This document shows positions 697-47,060 of a DNA stretch of 48,732 nt, piece by piece (the stretch's first letter is position 1; the number at the start of each line of letters is the position of its first letter). Origin of the DNA: a virus (taxonomy: Duplodnaviria > Heunggongvirae > Uroviricota > Caudoviricetes). The notes under the pieces were generated by a model. That model did not search any database, was not told the DNA's origin, and was given only the letters and a program-made list of their open reading frames with translations. The DNA is taken from the IMG/VR virus record IMGVR_UViG_2541047965_000007, positions 1 through 48,732 of that record, one strand, 5' to 3'. The position numbers were made by a program, and so were the translations under genes.

Positions 697-1059
697 GGGG
701 CTGATTCTGGATTCGACGGGATTTGCGAAACCCAAGGTGCATGCCGAGGGGCGGTTGGCCTCGTAAAAAGCCGCAAAAAATAGTCGCAAACGACGAAAAC
801 TACGCTTTAGCAGCTTAATAACCTGCTTAGAGCCCTCTCTCCCTAGCCTCCGCTCTTAGGACGGGGATCAAGAGAGGTCAAACCCAAAAGAGATCGCGTG
901 GAAGCCCTGCCTGGGGTTGAAGCGTTAAAACTTAATCAGGCTAGTTTGTTAGTGGCGTGTCCGTCCGCAGCTGGCAAGCGAATGTAAAGACTGACTAAGC
1001 ATGTAGTACCGAGGATGTAGGAATTTCGGACGCGGGTTCAACTCCCGCCAGCTCCACCA
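697..1059 (+). ncRNA. ssrA: tmRNA (SsrA), about 363 nt, with internal tag reading frame ANDENYALAA-stop at 786..818
   Basis: Starts GGGGCTGATTCTGGATTCGACGGG and ends tRNA-like GGTTCAACTCCCGCCAGCTCCACCA; tag peptide frame gcaaacgacgaaaactacgctttagcagcttaa read directly. Confidence 0.95.
1015..1059. repeat. att core copy 1 (45 bp, the 3' end of intact ssrA)
   Basis: atgtaggaatttcggacgcgggttcaactcccgccagctccacca is repeated exactly at 34600..34644. Confidence 0.85.
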
Positions 1060-1182
1060 AATAAATCAAGGGGTTACGTGAAAGCGTGGCCCCTTTTTCT
1101 TTGGTAGTGGCGGCAAAATGGCGACAGACTTTTGCGTCCATCTTGCCTGTCGCCATCTTGAAATCATGCAAAGAGGTTTCAC

Positions 1183-1665
1183 ATGGAAGAACTTCACTTT
1201 GTTTACATCAATGCAAATGGTCGTATCGGTGTTCACTCTATACAGAGCATCAGTTATAGCGAAAATCATATACAGGGCATTTGTAAGAACACCGATCGAA
1301 TAAAAACCTTCCGAAAAGACCGCATTCTTAAACAGTACGATTCACCAGAACAAGCCATTCAGGAGTGCGCGTCATTCCTCCCCGAAAACTACTCACATCT
1401 CACCAAGCAGTCTGGTCCGAAAAAAAATACATTCGATGTATGTTTCACCGGATTTAAGAAAGCAGATAAAGAAAGATTGGTTGATAAGGCGAATGAACAA
1501 GGATTAACGGTAAGAACCTCTGTAACCCAAAGCCTTCAGATGCTCTGTTGCGGTTACAATGCAGGCCCATCAAAAGTATCGGCAGCCCGGATGAAAGGCA
1601 CAATCATCATAGATGAGCCTGGCTTTATACATTTTCTTGAAACGGGTGAGATCCCAGATGAATAA
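1183..1665 (+). CDS. hypothetical small protein; C-terminal BRCT-like region, N-terminal R-x-F-R-x-D-R-I motif reminiscent of WYL domains; prophage-end cargo
   Basis: 160-aa ORF with SD aaagagg 7 nt upstream; AT-richer than neighbours; lies between the att core and ogr where P2 has no gene. Domain assignment is by eye only. Confidence 0.5.
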   Translation: MEELHFVYINANGRIGVHSIQSISYSENHIQGICKNTDRIKTFRKDRILKQYDSPEQAIQECASFLPENYSHLTKQSGPKKNTFDVCFTGFKKADKERLVDKANEQGLTVRTSVTQSLQMLCCGYNAGPSKVSAARMKGTIIIDEPGFIHFLETGEIPDE

Positions 1666-1691
1666 AAACCTGCCGTAGCAGGTTCTCTTTC

Positions 1692-1910
1692 TCAAAAATT
1701 CATATGCCCCTGACCACCTGGCAATGGATGTGGAGGAGCAGTAGCAATCAGTGCGGGTGTCACAATAAACCGGACCACTGTTTCATGGGTAACAAAAGTG
1801 CTCCCGCAGTTAATATTTTGGCACTGGCAGTAACGCTCTTTGGTGCTTTCAGTTACTTGAAAACTGCTCCTTGTGTGTGCCGCATGACCACACTTTGGAC
1901 AATTCATCAT
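1692..1910 (-). CDS. ogr: Ogr-type zinc-finger late-gene activator (start taken at internal Met; the ORF track extends to 1955)
   Basis: CPKCGHAAHTRSS ... CQCQNINCGSTF Cys4 pattern typical of P2 Ogr / 186 B / P4 Delta; sits next to gene D as in P2. Confidence 0.8.
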   Translation of the reverse strand: MMNCPKCGHAAHTRSSFQVTESTKERYCQCQNINCGSTFVTHETVVRFIVTPALIATAPPHPLPGGQGHMNF

Positions 1911-1978
1911 ATCCAGATCCCTACCTTTGCTATCAGAATCATTGTAATGATACACAAAATATCAATATTGAGAACACT

Positions 1979-3079
1979 TTATTCCATTTCAAGATCATCA
2001 ATCTTCACTTCGAGTTCAATACTGGTTGTAAAACCGTTATCCGGGCTGACGGTATGTGTCAGAGTCGTAATGGTCCATTCCGCATCATCTATCGGCTGTT
2101 TAAAACCACTGACCTTCACAGGCATTTCCGTGTAGAGATCTGCCCGCCCTTCCGCCAGTTGTAGCGAGAATGACGCAACGCCACGTTGCAGGCGTTCCCA
2201 CTGCATTTTCGCTGCCCGTTCAGCGTTGCTCCGGTTGGCATAAGTGCGATTAAGTACCAGCACGTTTTCATCCGTCCCCACCAGGTAATCGCCCTGCTTC
2301 GCTTCCGGCTCTTTCTTCTGCTTCTTAGTCCTGCGCTTACGCTTCACCGTAGTGCTTTCTTTCTTCGCGGGTTCGCGGGTATGCAACCAGCTGGCAAGTA
2401 CCCCCGTGTAAGCTCCGCGATCTGCCAGGGTAAAGCGGTGACTGTCGCCGTCCTTACGTGTGATAGTAATCACCGGCAGTGGTTTACCGCTGGCGCTTTT
2501 GCCCTGTCCCTGCCGGATGAATAACAGATTGCCATTTTTCACCGATGCAATGGCACCGTACTGGCGCGCCAGCCGCATCAAAAAACTGCCGTCACTCTCA
2601 TTAGTCTGGTCTATATGCTCCACGGGCTTATCCGACAGGTCTTTACCCAGTGCCATCTTCAGCTTGTGCCGCGCGGCTATTTCCTTCACCACTTCCCCGA
2701 TGGTGGTGTTATGCCACGATTTTTCACGGCGGGTATTCAGCGTTTCCCGAAAATCAGCACTTCGCGCCCGGATAGTCAGGCGGTCCGGTGCGCCAGTGTG
2801 TTCAATCTCGTCCACCGTGAATGCCCCTTTCGGGAAAAGCGGCTGCCCCTTCCAGCCCAGCGCCAGCGTAATGACCGCACCACGGCGCGGCAGCACGATT
2901 TTTCCGTCGGCGTCGTCCAGCTCCAGATCAAGCTGGTCCGCTTCAAAGCCCCGGTTATCCGTCAGCGTAAGCCCCATCAGGCGTTTGTCCAGCACAGTGG
3001 TGATATCCTTCCCCTCAATACTGATGCTGAATGCGGGAGTTTTGTTGCCTTTGTTAAGCAGTTCAGAGCTGAAATTCAC
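1979..3079 (-). CDS. D: tail protein gpD
   Basis: 366-aa ORF; size and position (ogr-D-U-T) match P2. Confidence 0.85.
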   Translation of the reverse strand: MNFSSELLNKGNKTPAFSISIEGKDITTVLDKRLMGLTLTDNRGFEADQLDLELDDADGKIVLPRRGAVITLALGWKGQPLFPKGAFTVDEIEHTGAPDRLTIRARSADFRETLNTRREKSWHNTTIGEVVKEIAARHKLKMALGKDLSDKPVEHIDQTNESDGSFLMRLARQYGAIASVKNGNLLFIRQGQGKSASGKPLPVITITRKDGDSHRFTLADRGAYTGVLASWLHTREPAKKESTTVKRKRRTKKQKKEPEAKQGDYLVGTDENVLVLNRTYANRSNAERAAKMQWERLQRGVASFSLQLAEGRADLYTEMPVKVSGFKQPIDDAEWTITTLTHTVSPDNGFTTSIELEVKIDDLEME

Positions 3080-3561
3080 GACAGCAGCCCTCCCACCGTT
3101 TTACTGATATCGCTTAAGGCAGACGTTGCCGTATCCTGCAAATTATTCAGCTGCGCACTGAGATCACCGAACATATCGGACAGGGATTCATCCACCCGTT
3201 TGAGCGACAGGGTAAACTCAATCCGGCGCGGCATACCATCGCGGAAAAACTCCGTTTTAGTCTGATTCAGTCCCTCAATCACATACATGCCGTAAATCGT
3301 GCCGCTGCCTTCAATCAGGGGCCATGCTTTTCCCTGTTCTGCCATCTGCTCCAGAGCCAGCAACGACAGCCTGCCGCCCGTTATCTCCGGCATAAGAACA
3401 CCAGAAAGCGTCAGCATGTCGTTGTCCGGTCCCAGAAACTGCGTGGACGGACGACGGTTTACCCGGCTGTTTGCCGCATGTCGCCAGCTGCGTTGATACT
3501 GCAGTTCCTGATACGGAACGGTGCGCAGCATAAACACGTACAATCCCAGCACCATCATCAT
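3076..3561 (-). CDS. U: tail protein gpU
   Basis: 161-aa ORF, start overlaps stop of T and end overlaps start of D; P2 synteny. Confidence 0.8.
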   Translation of the reverse strand: MMMVLGLYVFMLRTVPYQELQYQRSWRHAANSRVNRRPSTQFLGPDNDMLTLSGVLMPEITGGRLSLLALEQMAEQGKAWPLIEGSGTIYGMYVIEGLNQTKTEFFRDGMPRRIEFTLSLKRVDESLSDMFGDLSAQLNNLQDTATSALSDISKTVGGLLS

Positions 3562-6500
3562 GCGTCGTATCCCCCCTGATCGCTGTAGTTACTCCTGGCT
3601 TTTGCCTTCAGCCTGCGTTCACGTTCATCAAGCTGGCGTGCCACCTCCCGCGCAATATCCTGCGCACTTTGTCCTGGCTGCGTCTGAATGATGATCTGCG
3701 TCGGTGCCTCAATCCGGTGAACGGGCGGCACAGTGGCTGCACGACTCACCATCGCTTCGTCGCCTTTCGCGGGAAGTGCCAAAGGATGCAACGGTGGAAG
3801 CTCTGCAGGCGCGGCAGCAACGCCCATCATTCCGGCAACAACGGCAGCCAGTGCAGCTGTATTTCTCCGGCTGGTCACATTTGCCGGGCCGTTAACAATT
3901 TCCGGCCCGTTTTCACCGACGATGCCAAACTGCCCACGCGGGATATAGCCGCCGCTGTCATACATCCCCGCAAAGCCATATCCCCATGACGGAAAACCCC
4001 CCGATGGCATCATCACTTTACCGTCTGCATTCACCGTCGCAGGTTGCTGACGCGTCACTCTTTCCGGCAATTTCGCCTTTGCAGCCTCTTTACTGACAAT
4101 GCCGAGTTTCTCCAGCAACCAGGAAACGCCGGATTTCAGGGAGTCCAGCGGATGCATGACCATATTCAGCCCTTCCGCCAGTGCCTCCCCGAATCGCCGC
4201 CCCATTGCCGCTGCACTCTGCAGTTCGGCAGAGGTCGACTTAACGGGCGTCAGCAGATCAGTAAACCAGCCCCACAGCGCCTGTACTTTGTCGCCAATCC
4301 ACTGGAACACGGGCTTAAGCGGTTCGAATGCTGCACTGACGGGACCTGCCGCCGCTTTGAATCCTTCCACCACGCCACCAAGAAATGCGGTGATGGGTTG
4401 CCAGTATTTCCAGACAACCAGCGCCACGCCCGCCAGTGCAGTAACCACAAGACCTATCGGACTGAGCAGAGCACCTAACAGACCAGATACGGCATACAGG
4501 GCAACGCGCAGCATCGCCAGTGGACCAGATGCCAGTACTCGCAGCACCGTGCCTGCGGAGGCCAGTCCACCGCGCAGTACCGCCAGAGGATTCATAAACA
4601 TCACAGCAACAGCACGTAAACCGGATAATCCAGACCGCAAAAGTGCAACCGGCGCACCTGCTACAGTTTTCAGGACATTTCCCGTCAGTGATGCCGTGCG
4701 GCGCAAAGACGACAACGGCGCAGTAAGTAAACCTGCGGCGTTGCCCGATGAAGCAAGCCCGCGTCGCAGCAGTGCAAGTGGTGCGCCAGCCAACCAGGAC
4801 AACGCGCTGCTGGTTCGCGTTACTGCTGCCGTAACGGAAGGTAACGTTTTGATACCCAGCACAGAGAACCCCAGACGGATGACTGCCAGCGGCCCCAGCA
4901 CAGCAGCCAACACCACAGCCAGGGTGCCGAGGCCCACAGTAACAGCAGCCACAACCGCGGCTACTTTCATCAGTGTGCCCGTCAGTTCAGGGTTAGCTTC
5001 CACCCAGCGACGCAACGCCCCCGTGATGCTTTTCACCGTGTACAGAATATCCATCAGCGGCTGGCGCAGCGTTTCGCCCAGGCTGCTGAAGGTGTTCTGC
5101 GCTCCGGTTTTGACCAACAACCACTGCGCAGAAAGTGAGTCCTTGTTAATGTCGGATTCTTTCTGCATCGAACCGAGCGCATCATTGCCCGCTGTCAGTT
5201 TTAGCTGGCGCTGCAGTTCCGGCAGGTTGTTTGCCAATTTCGCCGCATCATCGCCAAACTCTTTACCAAACAACATGGTCATGGCAGACAGGCGCTTATC
5301 CTGCGGCAGTGCGTTCACCTTCTCCAGTACGCGCTGGATAGTTCCCATCGCATCCTTCGTCATCTGCTTTTCAATCACTTCAGGATTGAGTTTCAGCAGA
5401 TTCATTCCTTCAAAGAAACTCTTGCTTTGCATGGTCGCAATGGACAATTCACGCACCATCGCGTTGGCAGCACTGGCAGCGACCTCCGGCGCAGCACCCA
5501 GTGTCAGGAAGGTGGAACCCAGCGCCGCCGCTTTACGATAATCCAGACGATCAGCCACACCGCCCAGGCGTTGCATGACATCAATGATGTCTGCCCCTTT
5601 CGACATAGCGTTATCATCCAGATAGTTCAGCGCATCACCGAGCTGTTCAATATTGCGGGTTGGTATTTTGTAGAGCTGGGCGATTTTCCCCAGACTTTCT
5701 GACAGTTCATCCGCTGGCAGCTCAAAGGCTGTTGCCGCCTTTGCTGCCGTACTGGCGAAGGCCAGCAGGTCACGTTTCTGGTCCTCCCAGCTGTCGTCAG
5801 GGTTTGCCACATTCATGCGCGCACCACCTTCAACCAGTGCGGCGAAGTCCACAGCACCGTTTTCCATTGGCAGCTGTTCACTGGCAGCTTTGATGGCATC
5901 CTGCATTTCGTAAAAACGCGCAGTGCGGTTGCCATTATCGTCACGCAGACCATTGACCTGCTTTGCCACACCTTTCATGGCATCTTCCATGCTGGTATAG
6001 CTTTTTACCGCCGCCATCACTGGCGCGCCCATTGCCAGCCCTGCAGCCGTGGTGGTGGCTCCGGCTCCTGCGATGCGATCGCGCACTTCAAGCCGTCTTG
6101 AGTATTGTTCTCTGGCAGCGTTCATCCGTGCCTGTTGTTCACCCAGACGTTTAAGTGCTTTTTTCTGGCCCTCCAGTGCCTGACGAGTTTCTTCGGCATT
6201 TTTCTTAAGTTCTCGCTGGGCACTACTGAGTTGTCTGGTATCAATCCCTGATTCTTTAAGTGCCTGACGTTGTCTCTGGACCGCCCCCAACAAGCCGTTA
6301 TAGGTCTGCTGAAGTTCCTGTACTCGTGTTTTGGCCTGACTGAATAACTTTGCCTGCGCGGCGGTTGGCCTGTTAGTGGCAGCAAATTGTGTGGCGAGTT
6401 TTGCCGCCTCTTCGCGGGCTGCGTTCAGGTTGTTGGCTGTTATGGCTAGTTGCGAGCGCGTCTTGCGAAATTCATCAATTCTGCCAGCCTGCTTATTCAG

Positions 6501-6635
6501 TTCTTTGAGGCTGTTTCGGGTATTCTGAATTGCGCCAGCCAGCTCTTTCGAACTGGCCTGTGCAGCACGGAATGGGCGGGTGAGTTTGTCAACCGCATTA
6601 AGAATGACCTGCAGGCGCAGGTTATTATCACTCAT
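3558..6635 (-). CDS. T: tail tape measure protein gpT
   Basis: 1025-aa ORF, Ala/Gly/Leu-rich with coiled-coil N-terminal half; follows E/E' as in P2. Confidence 0.85.
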   Translation of the reverse strand: MSDNNLRLQVILNAVDKLTRPFRAAQASSKELAGAIQNTRNSLKELNKQAGRIDEFRKTRSQLAITANNLNAAREEAAKLATQFAATNRPTAAQAKLFSQAKTRVQELQQTYNGLLGAVQRQRQALKESGIDTRQLSSAQRELKKNAEETRQALEGQKKALKRLGEQQARMNAAREQYSRRLEVRDRIAGAGATTTAAGLAMGAPVMAAVKSYTSMEDAMKGVAKQVNGLRDDNGNRTARFYEMQDAIKAASEQLPMENGAVDFAALVEGGARMNVANPDDSWEDQKRDLLAFASTAAKAATAFELPADELSESLGKIAQLYKIPTRNIEQLGDALNYLDDNAMSKGADIIDVMQRLGGVADRLDYRKAAALGSTFLTLGAAPEVAASAANAMVRELSIATMQSKSFFEGMNLLKLNPEVIEKQMTKDAMGTIQRVLEKVNALPQDKRLSAMTMLFGKEFGDDAAKLANNLPELQRQLKLTAGNDALGSMQKESDINKDSLSAQWLLVKTGAQNTFSSLGETLRQPLMDILYTVKSITGALRRWVEANPELTGTLMKVAAVVAAVTVGLGTLAVVLAAVLGPLAVIRLGFSVLGIKTLPSVTAAVTRTSSALSWLAGAPLALLRRGLASSGNAAGLLTAPLSSLRRTASLTGNVLKTVAGAPVALLRSGLSGLRAVAVMFMNPLAVLRGGLASAGTVLRVLASGPLAMLRVALYAVSGLLGALLSPIGLVVTALAGVALVVWKYWQPITAFLGGVVEGFKAAAGPVSAAFEPLKPVFQWIGDKVQALWGWFTDLLTPVKSTSAELQSAAAMGRRFGEALAEGLNMVMHPLDSLKSGVSWLLEKLGIVSKEAAKAKLPERVTRQQPATVNADGKVMMPSGGFPSWGYGFAGMYDSGGYIPRGQFGIVGENGPEIVNGPANVTSRRNTAALAAVVAGMMGVAAAPAELPPLHPLALPAKGDEAMVSRAATVPPVHRIEAPTQIIIQTQPGQSAQDIAREVARQLDERERRLKAKARSNYSDQGGYDA

Positions 6636-7064
6636 CGTTGGCCCCGCTTCTCTGAATCGCTTTATACCGCCATTCCAGCACTTCGGTCAGCGGCATAACG
6701 TCAGTAACGGATGGCGGCCAGTGAAAGATGGTGGCGATATCAGCCACCAGATCGTCAACCGTCAGGCTGTCGGTAAACCGGCAAGCACCGACTTCTTCAA
6801 CAAAAAAGTGACAACCTCAACCGACATGGCAGTGAGATCTGCCGGGTCCATCTCTGCAATTTCCTGTGCAGTCAGTGCCGGACTGGAGATGCGGGGGATC
6901 ACGGTCATCATCGCGTTCACATCCATATCCATAATGGCCTGCAGGCGTGTACCGCGCAGCGCACCGGACTGCGGTTTACGCAGCACAATTTCGGTGATTT
7001 CTGTTTTACCGCGCTTGATGGGGGTATCCAGTTGAATAGTCTTTTCAGTCTGCTTATCGCTCAT
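6628..7064 (-). CDS. E: tail assembly chaperone gpE (6762..7064) and its -1 frameshift extension gpE+E' (to 6628)
   Basis: 100-aa E ORF; slippery T_TTT_TTG at 6801..6807 in E frame; the -1 frame is open for 60 further codons and stops at a TGA overlapping the T start codon. Confidence 0.75.
6801..6807 (-). other. programmed -1 frameshift slippery heptamer T_TTT_TTG
   Basis: Forward caaaaaa; on the minus strand the E codons ACT TTT TTG place the heptamer in the X_XXY_YYZ register. Confidence 0.7.
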
Positions 7065-7118
7065 TTTGCTGTCCTGTAAATTGGGTTCTGGCGCGGTATC
7101 CCGCGCCGTTCAGATACA

Positions 7119-7634
7119 TCAGAGGCCGAGGGCGTTGCGGTGCGCTTCCATCAGGTCCACACCGTCCACAATTTCCACCATGTTGATAAGGTCCACTTCA
7201 TAGAGCACCTCACCATTTATAGTCAGCTTCGCGTAGCTGTTGGTACTGGTCACTTTGGTGGTGTTGCTTTCGCCCGTCTTCCACTCGCCGGAATCCACTT
7301 CTTTGTGACGTCCACGCACCACAAGCTCCACGGCCTGCACTTCCCCGGTATCGTCACGCTGGATAGAGCCGGTAAAGCGCAACTGGATACCATCCACCGT
7401 GGCTTTGCCCATCTGCTTAAACAGCAGCAGTTCAGTACCACCAATGGAAAATTCCGTATCCAGTGCGCCGTCATCCAGCCCCAGATCCACATCCACTGCA
7501 CCCGGCATTCCGCCGCCGCGATACTTCTCATATTTGCGGGTAAATTTCGGCAGCGTCAGCGACTCAACGATCCCCTGCCAGTTGTTCCCGTCATTAAACA
7601 GGTTCAGGTGTTTTAATTTGCGTGGTAAAGCCAT
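7119..7634 (-). CDS. FII: tail tube protein gpFII
   Basis: 171-aa ORF directly downstream of the sheath gene; P2 synteny and size. Confidence 0.85.
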   Translation of the reverse strand: MALPRKLKHLNLFNDGNNWQGIVESLTLPKFTRKYEKYRGGGMPGAVDVDLGLDDGALDTEFSIGGTELLLFKQMGKATVDGIQLRFTGSIQRDDTGEVQAVELVVRGRHKEVDSGEWKTGESNTTKVTSTNSYAKLTINGEVLYEVDLINMVEIVDGVDLMEAHRNALGL

Positions 7635-7643
7635 GTTGTCCCC

Positions 7644-8816
7644 TTACGCGCTGACCTGGCTGGAGAAATTAACCAGGTACTGATCGGTGATGCGCTGACG
7701 CAGCATCAGGTTTTCAAGTGGCGGCACTGGCGTGTAGTCGTAGTCGATGGTGAGTTTTCCGGCTTTCAGCGTGTCTTTGTCGTTCACCGACTCATCCAGC
7801 CAGCAATCACCACCAATGAGATAGCCCTGACTGACCAGGCTGCGCATTTTGGCGCGGATACCCTCGATAATGTCGCGGGCCAGCGACGGATTCAGCGGTT
7901 TATCCACCGCCCACATGTGCGCTTCTGCCATCGTGTCCGTCAGCACCTGCGCCGTGCGGGTGTAGTTTTCGAAGGCAAAGAGCGGGTCATCACTCAGGCA
8001 GCGGGAACCCCAGAAGCGAAAACCGTCTTTGCGGATAAGGGTGGTGACGTCGTTCTGGTTCAGCAGTCCCGCATCGGTTGCCGGGTCCTGCAGATCCCAG
8101 AACACATCAGCAGAAATTCCGGTGACACCGTTAACGCCCACGTTGGACAGGCTTTTGTGCCATCCGGTCTGCTCGTCAATTTTGGCGCGCAGACCAAGCG
8201 CACGGGCGGTGGCATAAGCCGTTGCTTCGGCATTCAGCACCGTGTCCCAGCCAGTAAAGTCAGGCCAGATCAGCATCCCTTCGCGCTGGCTGAAGTTTTC
8301 ACGGTAAGTGATCGCCTCCTGTACCGTCTTGCAGCCATACGCTGACAGGTAAGCAAATCCACGCAGGCTTTGCGCCACGCTCAGCAACTCAGTAGCTACC
8401 GCCTTGGTGTCGTGGCCTGGCACGCCGAGAATGCGCGGTTTAACGCCGAGCTGAGCCTGTGCAGATAACAGGGCTTTCATACCTGTTTTTTTACCTTCAG
8501 CAGTCACTGCGCCGATGATATTGGTCGTGGTTTCGTCTTCCGTTTCACCCTGCGGCACACGCACAACAACGGTCACGGGTTTTGCCTGGTCAGCGATGGC
8601 ATCCAGCGAACGAGCCAGCGTGCCTGACTCACCCGCTTTACCGCTGGCAGTCAGCACATCAGTGATCAGCACGGGTTTATTAAGAGGAAACATTTTTGCA
8701 TCGGCATCATCGCCCGTGCAGACCATACCCACGATGGCGGTGCTCACCGTGGTAATGGATCGGGTGCCTTCGTTGACTTCAACAACGCGCACCCCGTGGT
8801 GGTAATCCTGAGCCAT
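7644..8816 (-). CDS. FI: tail sheath protein gpFI
   Basis: 390-aa ORF; P2 synteny and size. Confidence 0.9.
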
Positions 8817-10676: not shown

Positions 10677-11085
10677 GCCATTCAATATCTGGCACACTGG
10701 AGGTATCAACCAGCTCCAGTGCGTCCAGGTAATCCAGCCACAAATTATATTGCGCCAGTTCCTCGTCTTTCAGACGACCAATAGCGGCTTTACCGGGCCA
10801 TTGTTTACTGTTCATGTATTCGTTGGCCTGATTAAGCAATAATTGCCTTTCTGATTCTGCCTGTTGAATAAGTTCTTCATGTGATGGTGGAGGTATTAGT
10901 GCCCATGTGGGTAATCCATTCTCTCCTGCAACACGAATTTTGCCATCTGGGGGCGTATTTATTGCAAATTCATTATAAACATCATCACTGACAGCCAGAG
11001 CATCATCTGGCCATGAATTTGCATTAATGTAATCATCCTTAAGTGCAGGATTCACAAAAATGTTTAAAGATGGACTATAAAACAT
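10648..11085 (-). CDS. G: tail-fibre assembly chaperone gpG-like (expressed orientation)
   Basis: 145-aa ORF directly after H; C-terminal IEWPTPP motif; converges on and overlaps the alternative chaperone gene. Confidence 0.75.
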   Translation of the reverse strand: MFYSPSLNIFVNPALKDDYINANSWPDDALAVSDDVYNEFAINTPPDGKIRVAGENGLPTWALIPPPSHEELIQQAESERQLLLNQANEYMNSKQWPGKAAIGRLKDEELAQYNLWLDYLDALELVDTSSVPDIEWPTPPAVQAR

Positions 11086-39412: not shown

Positions 39413-39464
39413 CAATACCGTTTACCCACATTGTCATTTAACGTAGTTATCTTCACAAATCTAA

Positions 39465-39500
39465 GTTGCTAATTTATTAATAATTAGCAACCTTTTTATT
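39465..39500 (+). terminator. intrinsic terminator of the cargo operon
   Basis: gttgctaatt-tattaat-aattagcaac hairpin followed by cttttt. Confidence 0.6.
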
Positions 39501-39595
39501 GTCACAAAACGTTTTACATTCATATGAGGCTGTTTCGATAAATTAGTTTTAAACACCTCTGTATAATAAATATGCGTATATCCACTCAGCGCGCA

Positions 39596-39614
39596 GTGCT
39601 TTCCCCGCCTCGCC
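39596..39614. other. P2/P4-type cos (19-nt cohesive-end sequence)
   Basis: gtgctttccccgcctcgcc is the reverse complement of GGCGAGGCGGGGAAAGCAC, which I recall as the P2/P4 cohesive end. Confidence 0.8.
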
Positions 39615-39778
39615 CGCCCGCTTTGCGGGGCGGTTTTAATGCAGTTTCACTGACACGCTCAGGCCGCGCCGGGAATGGCGCGGTCTGCAGAAAATGAGGC
39701 AAGAAAACGCATGCAAAGCCATGCACCTTATCGATGCATGGCTTTTTTCAGTAAAAACGGGCGGATTTTCGGGGAGTT

Positions 39779-40351
39779 TTACACAGACTGATGTGATGCC
39801 AGTTGCGCACTTTTACGCGAAAAAATCATGTTCTGCGCAGGAGTGAATTTTTCACGGCTGTCATCCACCGAAGCCGCGTCAGGCCTGAATCCGATGGTCG
39901 TTAAAATGTCGCTATCCTGTGCGGAATAATTAATTTTTTCACCCTTCGCAAGCCAGGACAGGAGGGCTTCACGCAGGGCATCTGTGGCACGCTGTATGGC
40001 ACAGTTTCGGGCAATGGCCGTCAGCTCACTGTAGCCCATCAGCTCCGGTGCCAGTGCCGCCGCCAGTGCTGTGCCGTGCTGCTGCATAAAATCATTCAGC
40101 CGGTCGCGGATGCTGATGTGCTGAACGGCTTCATGCGAACGAATATAACGACCGGCGGCCTGATTCACCTGCCATTTTCTGACTTCGATAATATTGCGTA
40201 ATTCGTCCAGGCGACTGACGTTTCTGCCTTCTCCTGACAGAAGCCGCAGATATTCCTGTTCGGCCGCAGCCAGCTCATTTTTGCGTTGCAGCCATGCTGC
40301 TTTGTTATTCTGACAGGTGTCAAAGGCCTGCTGTAAGGCTGTGCTTTCCAT
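39779..40351 (-). CDS. psu: polarity suppression protein Psu (capsid decoration)
   Basis: 190-aa ORF recognised as Psu; gene order psu-delta-sid. Confidence 0.85.
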   Translation of the reverse strand: MESTALQQAFDTCQNNKAAWLQRKNELAAAEQEYLRLLSGEGRNVSRLDELRNIIEVRKWQVNQAAGRYIRSHEAVQHISIRDRLNDFMQQHGTALAAALAPELMGYSELTAIARNCAIQRATDALREALLSWLAKGEKINYSAQDSDILTTIGFRPDAASVDDSREKFTPAQNMIFSRKSAQLASHQSV

Positions 40352-40424
40352 CGTTATCTCTTTCTCATCATGCTGAAGAATAAAAATACGGTGTGCGGCG
40401 ACGGCCGGTGTTAACCGGCAGCCC

Positions 40425-40925
40425 TCATTCCAGACGCAGCGAATATGATTGTGTTTTTAAGCGTACTGGCGGCAGTTCCTGTTTTTCATGCAGGCGTTCT
40501 GCCAGTTCGTCCGGTGTGACCGGGCGGACAATGAAGCGGTTGATGGTCTGAAGCGTTTTAAACACCAGACCACAGCCCGGATCCGTGCACACATAAAAAC
40601 GCTCGGTGACTTCCTGAGAAAGACGCCGCGATGTTCTTGACAGTGCAAGGCCTTTACATCTCCGACAACAATATCCGGTAACAAGCATTCTTTTCGGGCG
40701 TTTCATGCTACCGGAGGCTGACGTCAGTGAATCGCGGTATCTCTGTTTGCCTGAAATGTATTCCATTCCTGAATCTTTACAGTCAGAGAAAAAGCTTTCA
40801 CTCGCTTCAAATGTCGCAGAGCAATAAATATTCCGGCACTGTGCAATCATTATCTTGGAGCCATCGTCCATGAAATGTGCGCGACGGGTGTGAGCAACAT
40901 GTCCACACGACGGGCAGTAAATCAT
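40425..40925 (-). CDS. delta: Delta late-gene transactivator (tandem Ogr-like zinc fingers)
   Basis: 166-aa ORF with two Ogr-type Cys4 modules (CPSCGHVAHTR ... CRNIYC and CCRRC ... CTDPGC). Confidence 0.85.
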   Translation of the reverse strand: MIYCPSCGHVAHTRRAHFMDDGSKIMIAQCRNIYCSATFEASESFFSDCKDSGMEYISGKQRYRDSLTSASGSMKRPKRMLVTGYCCRRCKGLALSRTSRRLSQEVTERFYVCTDPGCGLVFKTLQTINRFIVRPVTPDELAERLHEKQELPPVRLKTQSYSLRLE

Positions 40926-41674
40926 GACAGCAGTCCTCTGGCCTTAAGCTCTGCTCCCTGCTGGTCTATTTTGTCCTGCCACACCTTGCGCTGTGCCGGT
41001 GTGCCTGCCACCTCATAATCCATGTGCGGGAGTGTTGCCGCTGACAGTCCGGTCAGCCGGAGAACCGGCTCGCCGGTGAGGCTGATTTGCATCTGTTTTA
41101 TTTTCTGTTCCAGCGATGATTTCACCTGCTGCATGACAGCTTTATCGGGTGCGACGTAGCCCTGATGCCCGGTGGTGTTGGCGAGCGGATTTTCCTGTAC
41201 CAGAATGCTCAGATGCATTGCCCGGACAAGCGCCTCACAGGTTTCATTCAGGGCGTGTTCCAGCTCATGCTCTGCATACAGACTCAGAAGGTGATGATGT
41301 GCCTTCCGGTAGGCGGTGGCCGTGCTGTCACACGCCCCTTTCAGGCGTTCGCGTTCAAAATTCAGCACCACGGCCAGATTGTCATATTCCTGTACCAGCT
41401 CCCGGCGTGCCACGCGCTCAATGTGGCGCTGTTTCAGCTCGTCGCTCAGGACACCACCGGCTGCACGAAAGGCCGTGCGCCAGTCGTCAGCGTCGTTTCC
41501 GTCGGCCTGCGTCAGCGCATTTTTTTCCTGCTCTACCCGTTCAATGGCCGTGACGGTCTCATCCATCAGGCGGGCGTTCTCAAGGTGGGCGGCTCTGGCC
41601 TTTTCCAGTTGTGCCAGTGCGGGTTGCAGATATTCAGGGATGGTGTTGTCAGACATTTTCCGGCTCCTCGTCAC
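40922..41674 (-). CDS. sid: capsid size determination protein Sid
   Basis: 250-aa helical ORF upstream of delta; P4 synteny. Confidence 0.8.
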   Translation of the reverse strand: MTRSRKMSDNTIPEYLQPALAQLEKARAAHLENARLMDETVTAIERVEQEKNALTQADGNDADDWRTAFRAAGGVLSDELKQRHIERVARRELVQEYDNLAVVLNFERERLKGACDSTATAYRKAHHHLLSLYAEHELEHALNETCEALVRAMHLSILVQENPLANTTGHQGYVAPDKAVMQQVKSSLEQKIKQMQISLTGEPVLRLTGLSAATLPHMDYEVAGTPAQRKVWQDKIDQQGAELKARGLLS

Positions 41675-41821
41675 TTCAGGTTAAGAAAATTGTGACGTAC
41701 ACCGGACAACAACACGACGCATTGCAGATGTGCCAGCCCTGACACAGGAGACTCATCCTCAGACCGGCAAGCCAGGAAAAGGTCGCAGGAAAAACCGGCT
41801 TACTGTTTGTTTTTTATATTT

Positions 41822-41940
41822 TACTGTTCACCTCTGTTCACCATAAGAAAAAAGATAAGTAATACAGTAAGTTAAAGGGTGAACAATCGCAGTAATGACT
41901 GTTCACCGTCTGTTCACCACTGTTCACCACTGTTCACCCG
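41822..41940. repeat. cluster of TGTTCACC iterons (P4 ori-type alpha-binding sites)
   Basis: At least six copies of tgttcacc in both orientations (ctgttcacctctgttcacc ... gtgaacaatcgc ... ctgttcaccgtctgttcaccactgttcaccactgttcaccc). Confidence 0.7.
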
Positions 41941-42217
41941 TTGATGGGCTTTTTGTGCTGTTTATTACTGTTTGTTTTTATTAATTCGCCGGGAATGAAT
42001 AAGAAAAAACGATTTGTATTTCACTATAATTTTTTCCAGCTCCTTCCAGAGCGTTTTAAAGCTATCTGGCGCTAATGTACAAAAAATACACAACCATTGT
42101 AAGGCTGCCGGAACAAATCCCCCCTGTTGCGTCTGCTGAAAATATTCACAAAATAAAGCGCTACCCGAAGCCGGACGGACTTATCCGGTGCTGTATGGAC
42201 ATTAACGAGGTAGCCCG

Positions 42218-42484
42218 ATGCAAGCTGTTTTTTCTTCCCCGTCTCCCGCCCCTGTGACGCCACTGATGCCGCTGCCGGACATCACGCAGGAGCGTTTTTT
42301 ACGTCTGCCGGAAGTGATGCACCTGTGCGGCCTGTCACGCTCGACCATCTACGAACTCATCCGTAAGGGGGAATTTCCGCCGCAGGTGAGTCTTGGCGGT
42401 AAAAATGTGGCCTGGCTGCACTCTGAAGTCACCGCATGGATGGCCGGGCGCATTGCCGGACGCAAACGGGGGTACGACGCATGA
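42218..42484 (+). CDS. AlpA/Vis-type prophage regulatory DNA-binding protein
   Basis: 88-aa ORF with [25 protein letters not shown] and C-terminal W-rich tail. Confidence 0.75.
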
Positions 42485-43027
42485 TGATGCCCGCTCTGCA
42501 AAAAGTCCCTTTTTCTGGCTTGCCTTTTTCCGGCATTTGCGGATATAGTTTTTCCGCTGCCGCAAAATCGGCAGCCGGGCGTAGGAACCCGAGTTACTTC
42601 AAGGCGACATATGACGCGCCATGCGTCTTTTTTTACGTCGTTGCTTCGGCACACCTGTTTTTCTGGCTGTGGTTTTTAAACCGTAGCCTCTGTCAGATAA
42701 TGGTGGTCCGGGCGGGGCAGCCTTCGGGCTGGCCGGTTTCCTTGAAGGCCGGTATTCCTACCCCCGTCCGGGCTACCACCCATGAGCGTAGGAACTCCAG
42801 TGGTAGCTGTAACTGTTACTTCAAGGAGACTGCCATCATGGCTACAACCCTTACCCCCTCACACCCTGAATTTGTCTTTGTGTTTGCTGCTGTCCGTCGC
42901 GCAGACCGTCATCCCCGTATCTGTATGCTTCGCACCGTCGCCGGTGATGAACGCAGTGCCCGCCGTTCCCTTGTCCGTGACTATGTGCTCTCCCTTGCTG
43001 CCCGTCTGCCGGTGATGGGGGTGTCCC

Positions 43028-43315
43028 GTGCGTAATAAAAAAGCCCCTCAGACCGTCTCAGCGCGTCATGACGCCCGTGAACACCTCAGCATTGAGGCTT
43101 ACCATAAGCTCAACCGCGCCAGCGCCGTATCCCAGTTTGTTGGGGGTGATTTGATTCACCGTGAACTCTCCGGCCTGCATCAGCTCTACATTCCGCATAT
43201 TTTCAGCTACCTGAATGAAGATATTGATTTTGTGCTGAATGAGCTGAAAGCCAAAGGCCTGTGCCGCGATTTTCTCGCCCAGCAGAAAGACCGGGGAGAC
43301 AAGACGCATGTTTGA
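43028..43315 (+). CDS. small protein at the position of P4 epsilon
   Basis: 95-aa ORF in the operon leading to alpha. Confidence 0.5.
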
Positions 43316-43763
43316 TTTTCCCCAGCCCGGTGAGATTTTCCGTTCTGCCGGTTTTCCCGATGTGGCCGTGGTCGGCATTCTGGAAGACGGTATTCCGTGG
43401 GAAATGCCGTACCGCTGCCCGGAAATTGTCTGGAACCCGTACCGCCGTAAATTCAGTATCCTTGTGCGTATCCTCGCCGACGGGCGCACCACAGACATCC
43501 CGCTGGGGCGTTTTCTGCGGGAATTTACCTGTGACCGTCCTGACCTGTTTAAACGCAGCCCCGTAAACCGGCATGCGGTACTGAAAGAAATGGCCGGAGA
43601 CCCGGAATTACAGAAATGGCGGGAGAAATATCTGGATATTTACCCACAGGACCCTGTTCCGGTCAGCCGGGCGGCACCGATGGCGCGGGAATGGCGGGAA
43701 ATTCCCCGCACGGAGCCTGACCCGGAAATCACCCCGGATAACAGTTACCGCAATTATCTGTAA
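43308..43763 (+). CDS. P4 orf151-like protein
   Basis: 151-aa ORF; order 95-151-106-alpha matches my recollection of P4. Confidence 0.6.
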   Translation: MFDFPQPGEIFRSAGFPDVAVVGILEDGIPWEMPYRCPEIVWNPYRRKFSILVRILADGRTTDIPLGRFLREFTCDRPDLFKRSPVNRHAVLKEMAGDPELQKWREKYLDIYPQDPVPVSRAAPMAREWREIPRTEPDPEITPDNSYRNYL

Positions 43764-43898
43764 TTAAAAAACGACACCCGAAAAATTAAATGTGCGTATT
43801 CGCGCAGGGATACGCACGTCTTCAGGAGACGCAGATATGCCTTATCAGTTAATGCAACCGGCACGGAATGCAGTCATCTGTCACAGGGAGGAAAACAA

Positions 43899-44219
43899 AT
43901 GAAAACACCCTTACCGCCCGTCTTACGCGCTGCCCTTTACCGTCGCGCTGTCGCCTGTGCCTGGCTGACCGTGTGCGAACGTCAGCACCGCTACCCGCAT
44001 CTCACCCTTGAGTCACTGGAGGCGGCCATCGCCGCTGAGCTGGAAGGCTTTTATCTGCGCCAGCACGGTGAGGAAAAAGGGCGTCAGATAGCCTGTGCCC
44101 TGCTGGAAGATTTAATGGAATCCGGCCCCCTGAAGGCCGCGCCGTCGCTGTCCTTTCTCGGGCTGGTTGTGATGGATGAACTCTGTGCCCGTCACATAAA
44201 AGCGCCGGTACTGCACTGA
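43899..44219 (+). CDS. P4 orf106-like protein
   Basis: 106-aa ORF directly upstream of alpha. Confidence 0.6.
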
Positions 44220-44233
44220 AGGAGAACAACACC

Positions 44234-46567
44234 ATGAAAATGAACGTAACCGCCACCGTCAGCCATGCGCTCGGCCACTGGCCGCGTATTCTCCCGGCGC
44301 TGGGGATTCAGGTGCTGAAAAACCGTCATCAGCCCTGTCCGGTCTGTGGCGGGAGTGACCGCTTCCGTTTTGATGACAGGGAGGGGCGCGGCACCTGGTA
44401 CTGCAATCAGTGTGGTGCCGGTGACGGCCTGAAACTGGTTGAAAAGGTGTTTGGTGTCTCCCCGTCCGACGCGGCCACAAAGGTGGCTGCCGTGACCGGC
44501 AGCCTGCCCCCGGCTGACCCGGCAGTGACGGCTGCCGCCGTTGCTGAAACAGACGCTGCCCGGAAGAACGCTGCCGCACTGGCACAAACCCTGATGGCAA
44601 AAACCCGTCCCGGAACCGGTAACGCCTACCTGACCCGCAAGGGCTTTCCCGACCGGGAATGCCGGATGCTGACCGGCACACACAGAGCCGGTGGCGTGAG
44701 CTGGCGCGCCGGTGACCTTGTGGTGCCACTGTATGACGACAGCGGCGAACTGGTTAACCTTCAGTTAATCAGTGCTGACGGCCGTAAGCGCACCCTGAAA
44801 GGCGGACAGGTCAGGGGCACCTGTCACACCCTTGAAGGACAGAATCAGGCCGGAAAACGTCTGTGGATAGCGGAGGGATACGCGACCGCACTTACCGTAC
44901 ATCACCTGACCGGTGAAACGGTGATGGTGGCGCTTTCTTCCGTGAACCTCCTTTCTCTGGCCAGCCTTGCCCGGCAGAAGCATCCGGCCTGTCAGATTGT
45001 CCTTGCCGCAGACCGTGACCTCAGCGGTGACGGCCAGAAAAAAGCCGCCGCAGCCGCAGATGCGTGTGAGGGCGTTGTTGCCCTGCCGCCGGTCTTCGGT
45101 GACTGGAATGATGCCTTCACGCAGTACGGCGGGGAGGCCACCCGTAAGGCCATTTACGATGCCATCCGGCCACCGGCTGAAAGCCCGTTCGACACCATGA
45201 GCGAAGCAGAGTTTTCCGCCATGAGTACCAGCGAAAAGGCCATGCGTATCTATGAGCATTACGGTGAGGCGCTCGCGGTCGATGCCAACGGCCAGCTTCT
45301 GTCCCGCTATGAAAATGGTGTCTGGAAGGTGCTGCCGCCACAGGACTTTGCCCGGGATGTGGCCGGGCTGTTTCAGCGTCTGCGCGCGCCGTTCTCCTCC
45401 GGGAAGGTGGCCTCCGTGGTGGACACCCTGAAGCTGATTATTCCGCAGCAGGAAGCCCCCTCCCGCCGCCTGATTGGCTTTCGTAACGGTGTGCTCGACA
45501 CACAGAACGGCACGTTCCACCCGCACAGTCCGTCACACTGGATGCGTACCCTGTGCGATGTGGATTTCACCCCACCGGTGGAAGGGGAAACGCTGGAAAC
45601 CCACGCCCCCGCGTTCTGGCGCTGGCTTGACCGTGCCGCCGGTGGCCGTGCGGAAAAACGCGACGTGATTCTGGCCGCACTGTTTATGGTGCTGGCAAAC
45701 CGCTACGACTGGCAGCTCTTTCTGGAGGTGACCGGTCCCGGCGGCAGCGGCAAAAGTATCATGGCCGAAATAGCCACCCTGCTGGCCGGTGAGGATAACG
45801 CCACGTCGGCCACCATCGAGACGCTGGAATCCCCGCGTGAACGTGCCGCGTTAACTGGCTTCTCACTGATACGCCTGCCGGACCAGGAAAAATGGAGCGG
45901 CGACGGAGCCGGACTCAAGGCCATCACCGGCGGCGATGCAGTGTCCGTTGACCCGAAATACCGGGATGCGTACTCCACGCACATCCCGGCGGTGATTCTG
46001 GCCGTGAACAATAACCCGATGCGCTTCACCGACCGCAGCGGCGGCGTGTCACGCCGGCGGGTGATTATTCACTTCCCGGAACAGATAGCCCCGCAGGAGC
46101 GCGACCCGCAGCTTAAGGACAAAATCACCCGCGAGCTGGCGGTCATCGTGCGTCACCTGATGCAGAAGTTCAGCGACCCGATGCTCGCCCGGTCACTGCT
46201 TCAGTCCCAGCAGAACTCAGACGAGGCGCTGAACATCAAACGGGATGCCGACCCGACGTTTGATTTTATCGGCTATCTGGAAACCCTGCCGCAGACCAGC
46301 GGCATGTATATGGGGAACGCCAGTATCATCCCGCGCAATTACCGTAAATACCTCTATCACGCCTATCTGGCCTACATGGAGGCAAACGGCTACCGGAATG
46401 TACTCAGTCTGAAAATGTTCGGGCTGGGGCTGCCGGTGATGCTGAAGGAATACGGACTGAATTACGAGAAGCGCCATACCAAACAGGGGATACAGACCAA
46501 CCTGACACTGAAAGAGGAAAGCTACGGCGACTGGCTGCCAAAATGTGACGACCCTGCAACAACCTGA
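44234..46567 (+). CDS. alpha: alpha primase-helicase
   Basis: 777-aa ORF; N-terminal zinc ribbon CPVCGGSDRFRFDD ... CNQCG, Walker A GPGGSGKS. Confidence 0.9.
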   Translation: MKMNVTATVSHALGHWPRILPALGIQVLKNRHQPCPVCGGSDRFRFDDREGRGTWYCNQCGAGDGLKLVEKVFGVSPSDAATKVAAVTGSLPPADPAVTAAAVAETDAARKNAAALAQTLMAKTRPGTGNAYLTRKGFPDRECRMLTGTHRAGGVSWRAGDLVVPLYDDSGELVNLQLISADGRKRTLKGGQVRGTCHTLEGQNQAGKRLWIAEGYATALTVHHLTGETVMVALSSVNLLSLASLARQKHPACQIVLAADRDLSGDGQKKAAAAADACEGVVALPPVFGDWNDAFTQYGGEATRKAIYDAIRPPAESPFDTMSEAEFSAMSTSEKAMRIYEHYGEALAVDANGQLLSRYENGVWKVLPPQDFARDVAGLFQRLRAPFSSGKVASVVDTLKLIIPQQEAPSRRLIGFRNGVLDTQNGTFHPHSPSHWMRTLCDVDFTPPVEGETLETHAPAFWRWLDRAAGGRAEKRDVILAALFMVLANRYDWQLFLEVTGPGGSGKSIMAEIATLLAGEDNATSATIETLESPRERAALTGFSLIRLPDQEKWSGDGAGLKAITGGDAVSVDPKYRDAYSTHIPAVILAVNNNPMRFTDRSGGVSRRRVIIHFPEQIAPQERDPQLKDKITRELAVIVRHLMQKFSDPMLARSLLQSQQNSDEALNIKRDADPTFDFIGYLETLPQTSGMYMGNASIIPRNYRKYLYHAYLAYMEANGYRNVLSLKMFGLGLPVMLKEYGLNYEKRHTKQGIQTNLTLKEESYGDWLPKCDDPATT

Positions 46568-46574
46568 CCCACCT

Positions 46575-46600
46575 GACCGGCATCTGCCGGTCTTTTTTTA
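46575..46600 (+). terminator. intrinsic terminator after alpha
   Basis: accggc-atct-gccggt hairpin followed by ttttttt. Confidence 0.6.
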
Positions 46601-46613
46601 TCCCGACATCCCC

Positions 46614-46920
46614 CGAAGGTGAACAATCCACTGTTCACCCTTCACCGTATATTCACCCGTTATCACACTGAAATTAAAAGAGAAAAATGAAAGGTGAACA
46701 GTGTGAACAATCAAATCAAAAAAAACTTTTTTCTCCCTGTGCGATTTTCGGTGCAGGGAATTAATCACCGGTATGAGTCACACCGGCAGAATGCCGGAGG
46801 TGAAGAATCGAATGTTCACCCTTCACCCATTATTCACCACCTATCCAACTGAAATAAAAGGAGAAAACAGAAAGGTGAACAGTGTGAACAGTTCTTTCGA
46901 AAAAAAATTTTTTTCCTGTA
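46614..46920. repeat. crr-like region: two roughly 120-bp direct repeats each carrying TGTTCACC-type iterons
   Basis: Unit 1 from about 46614 and unit 2 from about 46797 share gtgaa(c/g)aatc ... tgttcacccttcacc ... ttcacc ... aaaggtgaacagtgtgaaca ... aaaaaaa-ttttt. Confidence 0.75.
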
Positions 46921-46976
46921 CGATATAGCATCAATCCAAGTAAAAATGCGCTTTCATTTCACATTAACTTACAGCC

Positions 46977-46999
46977 ATTGGTATACGATTAGGTATACG
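46977..46999. repeat. third copy of the intA-upstream 23-bp arm sequence
   Basis: attggtatacgattaggtatacg differs at one position from 34756..34778. Confidence 0.6.
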
Positions 47000-47042
47000 C
47001 ACAAAAACTGAATTAAACAAAATCATTAAAAATCAAAGCAAT

Positions 47043-47060
47043 ACAATATTTATTCAAACT
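47043..47060. repeat. degenerate att-core-like sequence (possible right junction of the satellite)
   Basis: ttcaaactccgccagccc resembles ttcaactcccgccagctcc of the ssrA core with indels. Confidence 0.4.

Follow-up and report, generated by a model that had tools for sequence, protein, structure and literature searches.

A Fels-2-type prophage and a P4-type satellite in tandem at the tmRNA gene of Escherichia coli: a shared target reached through two different integrases

Introduction

How does a prophage of the P2 family come to lie directly beside a P4-like satellite at a single bacterial gene, and does such a neighbour serve as the helper of that satellite? Both questions are raised by the stretch of DNA analysed here (hereafter the window), the 48,732 nucleotides of the caudoviral IMG/VR record IMGVR_UViG_2541047965_000007 (positions 1 to 48,732), in which the transfer-messenger RNA (tmRNA) gene ssrA is followed by a prophage of 33.5 kb, a second copy of the ssrA 3' end and a satellite of 12.4 kb. 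An earlier note on this DNA, made from the sequence without database searches, had described the two elements as a helper-satellite pair that had used the same tmRNA attachment site in succession. Our comparison of the window with phages Fels-2 and P4, with the E. coli K-12 locus and with 5,426 complete E. coli genomes leads us, with good confidence, to read the island as the product of two separate site-specific integrations at the ssrA 3' end by two unrelated tyrosine integrases, the adjacency of the two elements being incidental.

The occurrence of integrative elements in tandem at this gene is reportedly the subject of 'Traffic at the tmRNA gene', a work by Williams from 2003. The tmRNA locus has since been listed as E. 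coli defence-island hotspot #9, where prophages, P4-like satellites and other elements are found, sometimes several at once, and several integrase subfamilies target ssrA (PMC10121019). Salmonella LT2 is listed with both Fels-2, which has a P2 integrase, and Stm27X, which has a P4 integrase (PMC10107115, Table 1).

Results

Integration sites and integrases

The full-length tmRNA gene ssrA, intact and 100% identical to that of K-12, occupies 697-1059 (+) and was identified with both ARAGORN (tag ANDENYALAA) and Rfam (RF00023, 295.8 bits). The 45 nt with which it ends (ATGTAGGAATTTCGGACGCGGGTTCAACTCCCGCCAGCTCCACCA) occur exactly twice in the window, at 1015-1059 and 34600-34644 (both +), so that the two copies reported in the earlier note are confirmed; their spacing is 33,585, with 33,540 bp separating them, and 0 chance matches are expected for a 23-nt sub-pattern of this core. 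The first copy is the attL of the prophage, and the same 45 nt reconstitute the attP of Fels-2, the core of which is identical and the arms similar. The second copy is at once the attR of the prophage and the attL of the satellite, and constitutes a non-functional ssrA 3' fragment. In satellite-only genomes the point equivalent to this second copy is occupied by an intact ssrA, which runs straight into the satellite sequence seen here.

The far end of the satellite is a degenerate core, TTCAAACTCCGCCAGCCCAA (47053-47072, +), which represents the satellite attR and a fossil ssrA 3' end (the corresponding sequence in ssrA being TTCAACTCCCGCCAGCTCCA) and is homologous to psaA, the annotated 14-bp pseudo-ssrA at the right end of the K-12 element CP4-57. 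A core-like right end had been noticed before, but the position given for it (47043-47060) was wrong and overlaps the actual one by just 8 nt. The degenerate core lacks T357 (CGCCAGC-CC) and reads ...CCGCCAGCCCAA, the same pattern as that reported in PMC10107115 (Table 1), and it is more decayed than its K-12 counterpart, having CCAAAT where K-12 has CCACCA. The only block common to both ends of the satellite is CCGCCAGC, of about 8 bp, and the same block is common to both ends of CP4-57, for which excision has been demonstrated experimentally (PMC10107115). Direct repeats (GGTATACGnTTAGGTATAC) of the integrase arm type are found near both ends: those on the int side (GGTATACGTTTAGGTATAC with an inverted unit, 34759-34795) lie inward of the left core by 115 nt, and the one on the far side (GGTATACGATTAGGTATAC, 46980-46998, +) precedes the right core by 55 nt; the annotated arm sites of P4 attP lie at the same distances, and the boundaries given here for the satellite are therefore supported.

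The integrases that belong to these sites are unrelated. That of the prophage (33457-34482, +) is a Fels-2-type tyrosine integrase, with 95% amino acid identity to Fels-2 Int, 56% to 186 Int and 38% to P2 Int. The satellite encodes an ssrA-specific enzyme of the P4 subfamily (34829-36037, +) with the Pfam domains Arm-DNA-bind_3, Phage_int_M and Phage_integrase, which is 58% identical to K-12 IntA and 35% identical to P4 Int. The claim that both elements had used the same attachment site in succession thus stands for the target gene, but it needs nuance since two integrase families with different shared blocks were at work, the Fels-2-type Int sharing 45 bp with ssrA and the P4-type Int the roughly 8 bp of CCGCCAGC with the right end.

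Occurrence of the two elements in other genomes

Among the 5,426 complete E. coli genomes searched, nine (JNE25-001 and eight others) carry the same satellite (99.7%) directly after an intact ssrA, and in JNE25-001, the one inspected of those nine, no prophage lies between the two. In STEC2018-553 and its relatives, ssrA is followed by a prophage (97.3% identical) and no satellite. Since each element occurs alone at ssrA elsewhere, the two have, on this comparison, moved independently, and these solitary copies speak against excision as a single unit only, a possibility that had been raised in the earlier note. The exact composite is absent from the 5,426 genomes, the best matches being the 97.3% prophage and the 99.7% satellite, the satellite in a different flank context.

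A 275-nt query spanning the prophage arm, the core and the P4-type arm, counted where at least 80% of it was covered, found this type of junction in 47 of the 5,426 genomes, and in approximately 233 a second copy of the core adjoins a Fels-2-type arm. The junction genomes that were sampled differ in what follows: a bare P4-type integrase remnant in TOK-001, two decayed partners in strain 2824, and full satellites in GPEC673 and 2020N21-246. An exact-pattern scan of species-representative genomes provided five representatives outside E. coli with a Fels-2-type attR, three of which have P4-type int or psu sequence just downstream, and the tandem pattern, judged from these genomes, extends beyond E. 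coli. Fels-2-type integrases with 93-94% amino acid identity and the same attR are found in Citrobacter pasteurii (L011), Klebsiella sp. (L012) and Citrobacter sp. (L014), all with P4-type integrase or psu fragments following within a few kb, and the Klebsiella tandem lies on a 775-kb replicon labelled as a plasmid. The arrangement is a recurrent one, at a well-known hotspot, which had been catalogued earlier in outline, and in this respect it is ordinary.

The Fels-2-type prophage

The prophage (1060-34599) is a complete member of the P2 family of the Fels-2 type, 33.5 kb in length and colinear with Fels-2 (NC_010463), to which approximately 80% of its length aligns at 82% nucleotide identity. 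Its earlier description as P2/186-like holds at the family level, but the head, cos and integrase are specifically of the Fels-2 type (Felsduovirus-like). Amino acid identities to Fels-2 reach 91% for the capsid protein gpN, 97% for the terminase gpP, 94% for gpM and 89% for gpA, and the cos region is identical in the two phages. Under the P2-like phage model used in PMC13586616 (gpQ-to-gpL operon, gpA and integrase), the head and packaging operon gpQ-gpL, the gpA endonuclease and the integrase are all present and full length, at 85-97% amino acid identity to Fels-2. The tail, baseplate and lysis modules are complete and colinear with those of Fels-2, and the genes of the 97%-identical STEC2018-553 prophage are all (48 of 48) full length and stop-free in the window. 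The prophage looks intact by these measures.

The gene order begins with an ogr/B-type late activator (1695-1910, -; 78% amino acid identity to the Fels-2 Ogr-like protein, 67% to 186 B and 56% to P2 Ogr), which is followed by the tail genes D, U, T (tape measure), E/E', FII (tube) and FI (sheath) at 1979-8816 (-). At the Z/fun position lies a Gin/Cin-type DNA invertase (8959-9531, -; Pfam Resolvase, 2.3e-53, plus HTH_7), with an invertase at the same position in Fels-2, and next to it an invertible tail-fibre segment of 1.87 kb (9581-11448) bounded by 26-nt inverted crossover sites (9581-9606 and 11423-11448, 85% complementary). This segment, which carries an alternative tail-fibre C-terminus, encloses the 3' end of H, two genes for tail-fibre assembly and a tail-collar fragment; together with the invertase it resembles the host-range switches of Mu, P1 and Fels-2. 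The genes G, H, I, J, W, V, S, R and the lysis genes follow, and then the head and packaging genes (17665-23721), L, M, N and O on the minus strand and P and Q on the plus strand. The head proteins are overall about 59-63% identical to those of P2/186, with 59% for gpN and 63% for gpP against P2. Beyond Q the order is cargo slot, cos, a LexA box with a DinI/Tum-like gene, A, dam, CII, Apl, a 186-type CI and int.

The prophage cos, identified from a local BLAST search and from the Fels-2 sequence, is the 19-mer GGCGTGGCGGGGATACGAG (26249-26267, -), of which 14 of the 19 positions match P2/P4. It is followed by an SOS module (26475-26965, -) consisting of a LexA box (CACTGTTTATATTTACAGTA, 26946-26965; 0 matches expected by chance), a small open reading frame (ORF) and a DinI/Tum-like gene (Pfam DinI, 1.3e-22), the product of which is 99% identical in amino acid sequence to its DinI-family counterpart in Fels-2 and 41% identical to 186 Tum. 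The layout is the same as that annotated for 186 p95-tum, and because the LexA box precedes a Tum/DinI-like operon in this way the prophage should be SOS-inducible. The replication endonuclease A (27058-29472, -) is 89% identical to its Fels-2 gpA-like counterpart. The repressor gene (32823-33455, +) encodes a 186/Fels-2-type CI (Pfam Phage_CI_repr and Phage_CI_C) with 58% identity to Fels-2 CI and 32% to 186 CI, and no match to P2 C was obtained. With only 58% identity for CI and 72% for Apl, the immunity specificity of the prophage is therefore probably different from that of Fels-2.

The presence of two cargo hotspots in the island, also put forward in the earlier note, was borne out, and the first of these lies in the prophage between the portal gene Q and cos/A (23759-26108, -), a position that matches a published P2 hotspot (PMC9122126). 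It encodes a 282-aa protein, a helix-turn-helix (HTH) protein and a member of the TIGR04255 family (4e-53, NCBIfam), with a GC content of 0.40-0.42 and 99.6-100% amino acid identity to the cargo of the STEC2018-553 prophage. PADLOC matched no system in this cargo, the 282-aa protein fell into no family, and a literature search returned no paper mentioning the TIGR04255 family. By its position at a P2-like defence slot the segment is a candidate uncharacterised defence locus. An accessory ORF of 160 aa (1183-1665, +), located between attL and ogr, gave a weak BRCT-like match and a C-terminal PADLOC match to PDC-S48 (1.8e-07). It lies in a low-GC stretch, is 100% identical in the STEC2018-553 prophage and is absent at that position of Fels-2; this region may represent an extra accessory slot beside the att site.

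The P4-type satellite

A P4-like satellite of about 12.4 kb directly after the second core copy had been proposed before, and the element (34645-47052) proves by sequence to be essentially P4 itself: from cos to the end of crr, a distance of 7.3 kb (39615-46913), it is 97.4% identical to phage P4 (NC_001609) at the nucleotide level. Every member of the P4-like core set of PMC8628076 (int, psu, delta, sid, alpA, epsilon and alpha) is present. The cos 19-mer GGCGAGGCGGGGAAAGCAC (39596-39614, -) is an exact match to that of P2/P4 (0.02 expected by chance) and marks the point at which homology to P4 begins; a scan of the window with the P2 cos 19-mer, allowing up to 3 mismatches, matched only this copy.

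The helper-exploitation operon psu, delta, sid (39779-41674, -) encodes proteins with 98.9%, 97.6% and 98.4% amino acid identity to those of P4 (Pfam Psu, 1.3e-88; Ogr_Delta, 1.2e-21), and vis/alpA, which corresponds to P4 orf88, lies at 42218-42484 (+; 98.9%). On the plus strand at 43028-46567 are epsilon, orf151, orf106 and alpha, a primase-helicase with Primase, Toprim and D5 domains, at 97.9%, 96.7%, 100% and 99.2% identity to P4 respectively, and these are followed by crr (46613-46913, +), two 120-nt direct repeats with a spacing of 181 that align to the annotated P4 crr (4291-4590). The immunity region (42543-42783, +) has a1b1 sites (42543-42595), an isrK-like RNA (42556-42633) and a C4-type CI RNA (42696-42783), with RF03163, RF01394 and RF01695 of Rfam all above the gathering score. 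Beside the CI RNA a 58-nt segment (42641-42698) stands where P4 has 103 nt, and the immunity specificity of the satellite may therefore differ from that of P4.

The cargo hotspot of the satellite (36079-39412, +) consists of four genes, a small ORF, an ABC-3C CTD9 protein (PF20285, 1.5e-31, Pfam), an MC5 middle component (PF20291, 2e-28, Pfam) and an LmuB-like SMC ATPase (LmuB, 7e-36, PADLOC), at a GC content of 0.32-0.34. The components of a Lamassu/ABC-3C system, namely the SMC-like ATPase LmuB, a middle component and an effector with a C-terminal ABC-3C domain, were thus all found, and the segment is a predicted defence locus of the Lamassu/ABC-3C family. A CTGT-N8-ACAG motif, the only one in the window other than that of the prophage LexA box, lies at 36839-36854 inside the CTD9 gene, 130 nt before MC5 and beside a TATAAT sequence, and the 47 nt at 36827-36873 are 70% identical to the SOS operator region of the prophage (26936-26982). 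SOS control of the satellite cargo is not claimed on this basis: two such motifs occurred in 10 of 100 shuffles, and the second may be a chance occurrence. Taken as a whole the satellite is essentially a P4 backbone in which, to judge from this comparison, the integrase/att module and the cargo have been swapped.

Flanks of the island and the K-12 locus

The left core-genome flank is smpB (1-483, +), which is 98.8% identical to K-12 smpB at the nucleotide level and is annotated as such in syntenic loci, and the right flank is glaH (= csiD; 47755-48732, +; Pfam CsiD, 6.7e-150), 93% identical to K-12 glaH. Between smpB and the 100% identical ssrA the spacer (484-696) is about 80% identical to both K-12 and JNE25-001, with the -10 region just upstream of ssrA retained. 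The spacer and glaH values mark the host lineage, or this region, as divergent within E. coli by sequence comparison.

Terminators accompany each layer of the locus. Directly 3' of ssrA the prophage supplies a terminator-like hairpin (1068-1095, +) found by a terminator scan, and the same arm sequence is present at the left end of Fels-2. The left arm of the satellite (34645-34715) contains a hairpin formed by GCCCGCA, a 12-nt loop and TGCGGGC, followed by a T-run; the scan, limited to loops of 8 nt, did not flag this hairpin with its 12-nt loop. In satellite-only genomes it would act as the ssrA terminator. The native flank has a terminator at 47200-47221, and each layer (prophage, satellite arm and native flank) is thus predicted to bring a terminator for ssrA.

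The segment following the satellite attR (47073-47224, +) is native flank shared with K-12 downstream of CP4-57, with 88.5% identity to K-12 over 47052-47223. The earlier note had stated, correctly by comparison with the K-12 locus, that CP4-57 occupies this site in K-12 and that further genes separate it from csiD: the order there is ypjA, pinH, ypjB, ypjC, ileY, ygaQ and glaH. Beyond 47223 the K-12 stretch ypjA-ygaQ (10.6 kb) is absent from the window and homology resumes 200 bp upstream of glaH, bearing out the suggestion that the ssrA-csiD interval is highly plastic. The 333 bp at 47224-47556, which replace ypjA-ygaQ, have no counterpart in the K-12 ssrA-glaH interval. The junction from P4 primase to glaH is common to 103 complete E. 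coli genomes.

The K-12 interval itself (NC_000913, L002 28566-29044) includes a fossil (28955-29044) in which a left arm of the Fels-2 type, 89% identical to window positions 1047-1121, is joined to a third ssrA 3' end, TTCAGTCACTGCCAGCCCACCA, which is damaged; just before this fossil lies the pinH invertase fragment, with 79.5% identity to window positions 9275-9396. Remains of earlier elements that targeted ssrA thus seem to have accumulated in the ypjA-ypjC region of K-12, apparently including those of a P4-type element inserted proximal to a Fels-2-type prophage.

Discussion

How the tandem arose

The reading that we hold to be probable, that of two separate integrations at the ssrA 3' end, would proceed as follows. 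The CP4-57/IntA-type integrase of the satellite would cross over within the roughly 8 bp of CCGCCAGC, and its integration would supply a fresh ssrA 3' end together with the terminator-like hairpin, leaving the old, decayed end behind as the attR at 47053-47072. A Fels-2-type phage, with 45 bp in its attP identical to the ssrA 3' end, would then recombine with the intact ssrA, and its insertion would leave two perfect 45-bp copies and push the satellite distally. We somewhat favour this order, with the satellite or a predecessor first and the prophage second, because only one intact 45-bp target would then have been available and the order observed would always result. A point against the account is that the sequence itself does not reveal which element inserted first, because both 45-bp copies are identical.

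The opposite order, in which a Fels-2-type phage arrived first at ssrA and a P4-type satellite then entered the distal copy, that is the prophage attR, seems possible if rather unlikely. Both copies carry the same core and either could be used by a P4-type integrase, and the K-12 fossil, in which a P4-type right arm with a damaged core runs into a left arm of the Fels-2 type, documents P4-type integration after a Fels-2-type prophage, though at the proximal copy. A prophage already in place, however, leaves a satellite two equivalent targets, and the satellite attR consists of an old fossil core and native flank, as in the satellite-only genomes, which fits a long-resident P4-type occupancy; furthermore, elements with a P4-type integrase at ssrA look much commoner in E. 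coli than those of the Fels-2 type, for which the count of genomes with a prophage arm is about 233 of the 5,426. The whole composite may instead have arrived as one block, through homologous recombination with the smpB-glaH region of another strain, both integrations having occurred elsewhere. The low identities of the spacer (about 80%) and glaH (93%) to K-12, set against 98.8% for smpB and 100% for ssrA, suggest a locally divergent or imported region, and the sharing of the P4-primase-to-glaH junction by 103 genomes also speaks for such an origin. We regard such a transfer as unlikely, given that no donor with the same composite was present among the 5,426 genomes, and it would bear on the place of the integrations and not on their mechanism. 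A misjoining of contigs through the 45-bp repeat, an artefact that the earlier note had asked to be considered, has nothing in its favour beyond the existence of the repeat, and is so improbable that it can be set aside: the same type of junction recurs in 47 independently assembled complete E. coli genomes, the arms at each junction are exactly as predicted from Fels-2 attP and the satellite-only loci, and sequencing reads greatly exceed 45 bp in length.

Is the neighbour a helper?

For this prophage 'helper' is a family label, and the evidence that it helps this particular satellite is mixed and leaves the matter uncertain. In favour, the prophage looks like an intact phage of the P2 family. 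Activators of the Ogr/Delta type are present on both sides, the prophage ogr (1695-1910) and the satellite delta, and an Ogr-class activator turns on P4 late promoters. Following SOS induction the Ogr-type activator and late genes of the prophage could plausibly support the satellite. P2 and 186 are both helpers of P4, and the C repressor of P2 is the target of P4 Epsilon. Measured against these systems several features weigh against a working pair: the prophage cos 19-mer differs from that of the satellite at 5 of 19 positions, although the flanks are of similar architecture and gpP is 63% identical to that of P2; the capsid protein gpN has only 59% identity with either P2 gpN or 186 T, two proteins that are themselves 76% alike; and the repressor is a CI of the 186/Fels-2 type with no match to P2 C. 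PSP3 was considered as a bridge to helper competence and gave no support, being a 186-type phage (Eganvirus, with a cos identical to that of 186) and not of the Fels-2 type. A literature search returned no paper linking Fels-2 to the helping of P4.

The side-by-side position is most likely a by-product of the shared target and not a mark of functional coupling. The alternative would be a selected, coupled unit, in which adjacency serves co-inheritance or co-induction or the prophage is kept as an insulator of ssrA. Such a unit would fit a prophage that is predicted to be SOS-inducible and encodes an Ogr-type activator, an arrangement that recurs in E. coli and in other genera, and a geometry that spares ssrA what P4-type excision is documented to do to it (PMC10107115). 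Yet a P4-type arm lies beside just 47 of the approximately 233 Fels-2-type attR arms, several of those 47 are decayed remnants, both elements are common alone, and the cos, capsid and repressor type of the prophage are unmatched to the known requirements of P4; in addition, a recent survey found no exchange of defence genes between P2 and P4, and its searched passages contain no description of P2/P4 adjacency (PMC13586616). We consequently think a coupled unit improbable, and give as little credit to the fullest form of the idea, in which the prophage would be both the resident Fels-2-type helper of the P4 backbone and the insulator of ssrA, the pair being co-inherited. If true, the range of helpers open to P4 would come to include the Fels-2 lineage despite the diverged cos, capsid and repressor.

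Predicted consequence for tmRNA, and significance

Excision of elements with a P4 integrase transfers changes at the right end into ssrA, abolishing trans-translation, whereas elements with a P2 integrase such as Fels-2 leave ssrA intact (PMC10107115, Table 1). In satellite-only strains excision would accordingly be expected to replace ...GCCAGCTCCACCA with ...GCCAGCCCAAATA at the end of ssrA. In the window ssrA would be untouched by excision of the satellite because the satellite attL is the pseudo-copy at 34600-34644, and the geometry suggests that the prophage shields the working gene from damage by the excision of a satellite with a P4-type integrase.

The value of the locus is mainly annotational, in that two apparently intact elements are cleanly delimited here, with their att sites, cos sites and cargo slots, at one of the busiest integration sites of enterobacteria. 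It also illustrates module swapping: 7.3 kb of the backbone has remained 97% identical to P4, while both the defence cargo and the integrase/att module have been exchanged. If available, the strain would be a convenient natural system for two questions, the helping of P4 by a Fels-2-type phage and the protection of tmRNA by a prophage, neither of which would overturn current understanding.

Comparison with known systems

The closest relative of the prophage among the systems considered is Fels-2 of S. Typhimurium LT2 (Felsduovirus, Peduoviridae, a relative of SopE-phi), which has the same gene order from ogr to int and shares the Gin-type invertase with its invertible segment, the cos-side cargo slot, the DinI/Tum SOS module and the 186-type CI. 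The window prophage differs from it in its E. coli host, in CI (58%) and Apl (72%), in the cargo set with TIGR04255, in the extra 160-aa ORF and in the approximately 20% of its length that does not align. The satellite has in common with P4 the 97.4% nucleotide identity from cos to crr, the identical 19-nt cos and the architecture of the attP arm repeats, but its integrase is only 35% identical, its site is ssrA and not leuX, and the gop-beta-cII region of P4 is replaced by the four-gene Lamassu/ABC-3C locus. CP4-57 of K-12, with its integrase IntA, resembles the satellite in site and orientation, in having int directly after ssrA, in the homologous right core without T357 and in the native flank of about 160 bp; CP4-57, however, is a degraded island of 22 kb without psu, sid, delta and alpha, whereas the window element is a complete satellite. 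Compared with the tandem arrays previously listed at the tmRNA gene, the window appears to be distinguished by two partners that both look intact, and by a partner with a P4-type integrase that is a bona fide P4 satellite.

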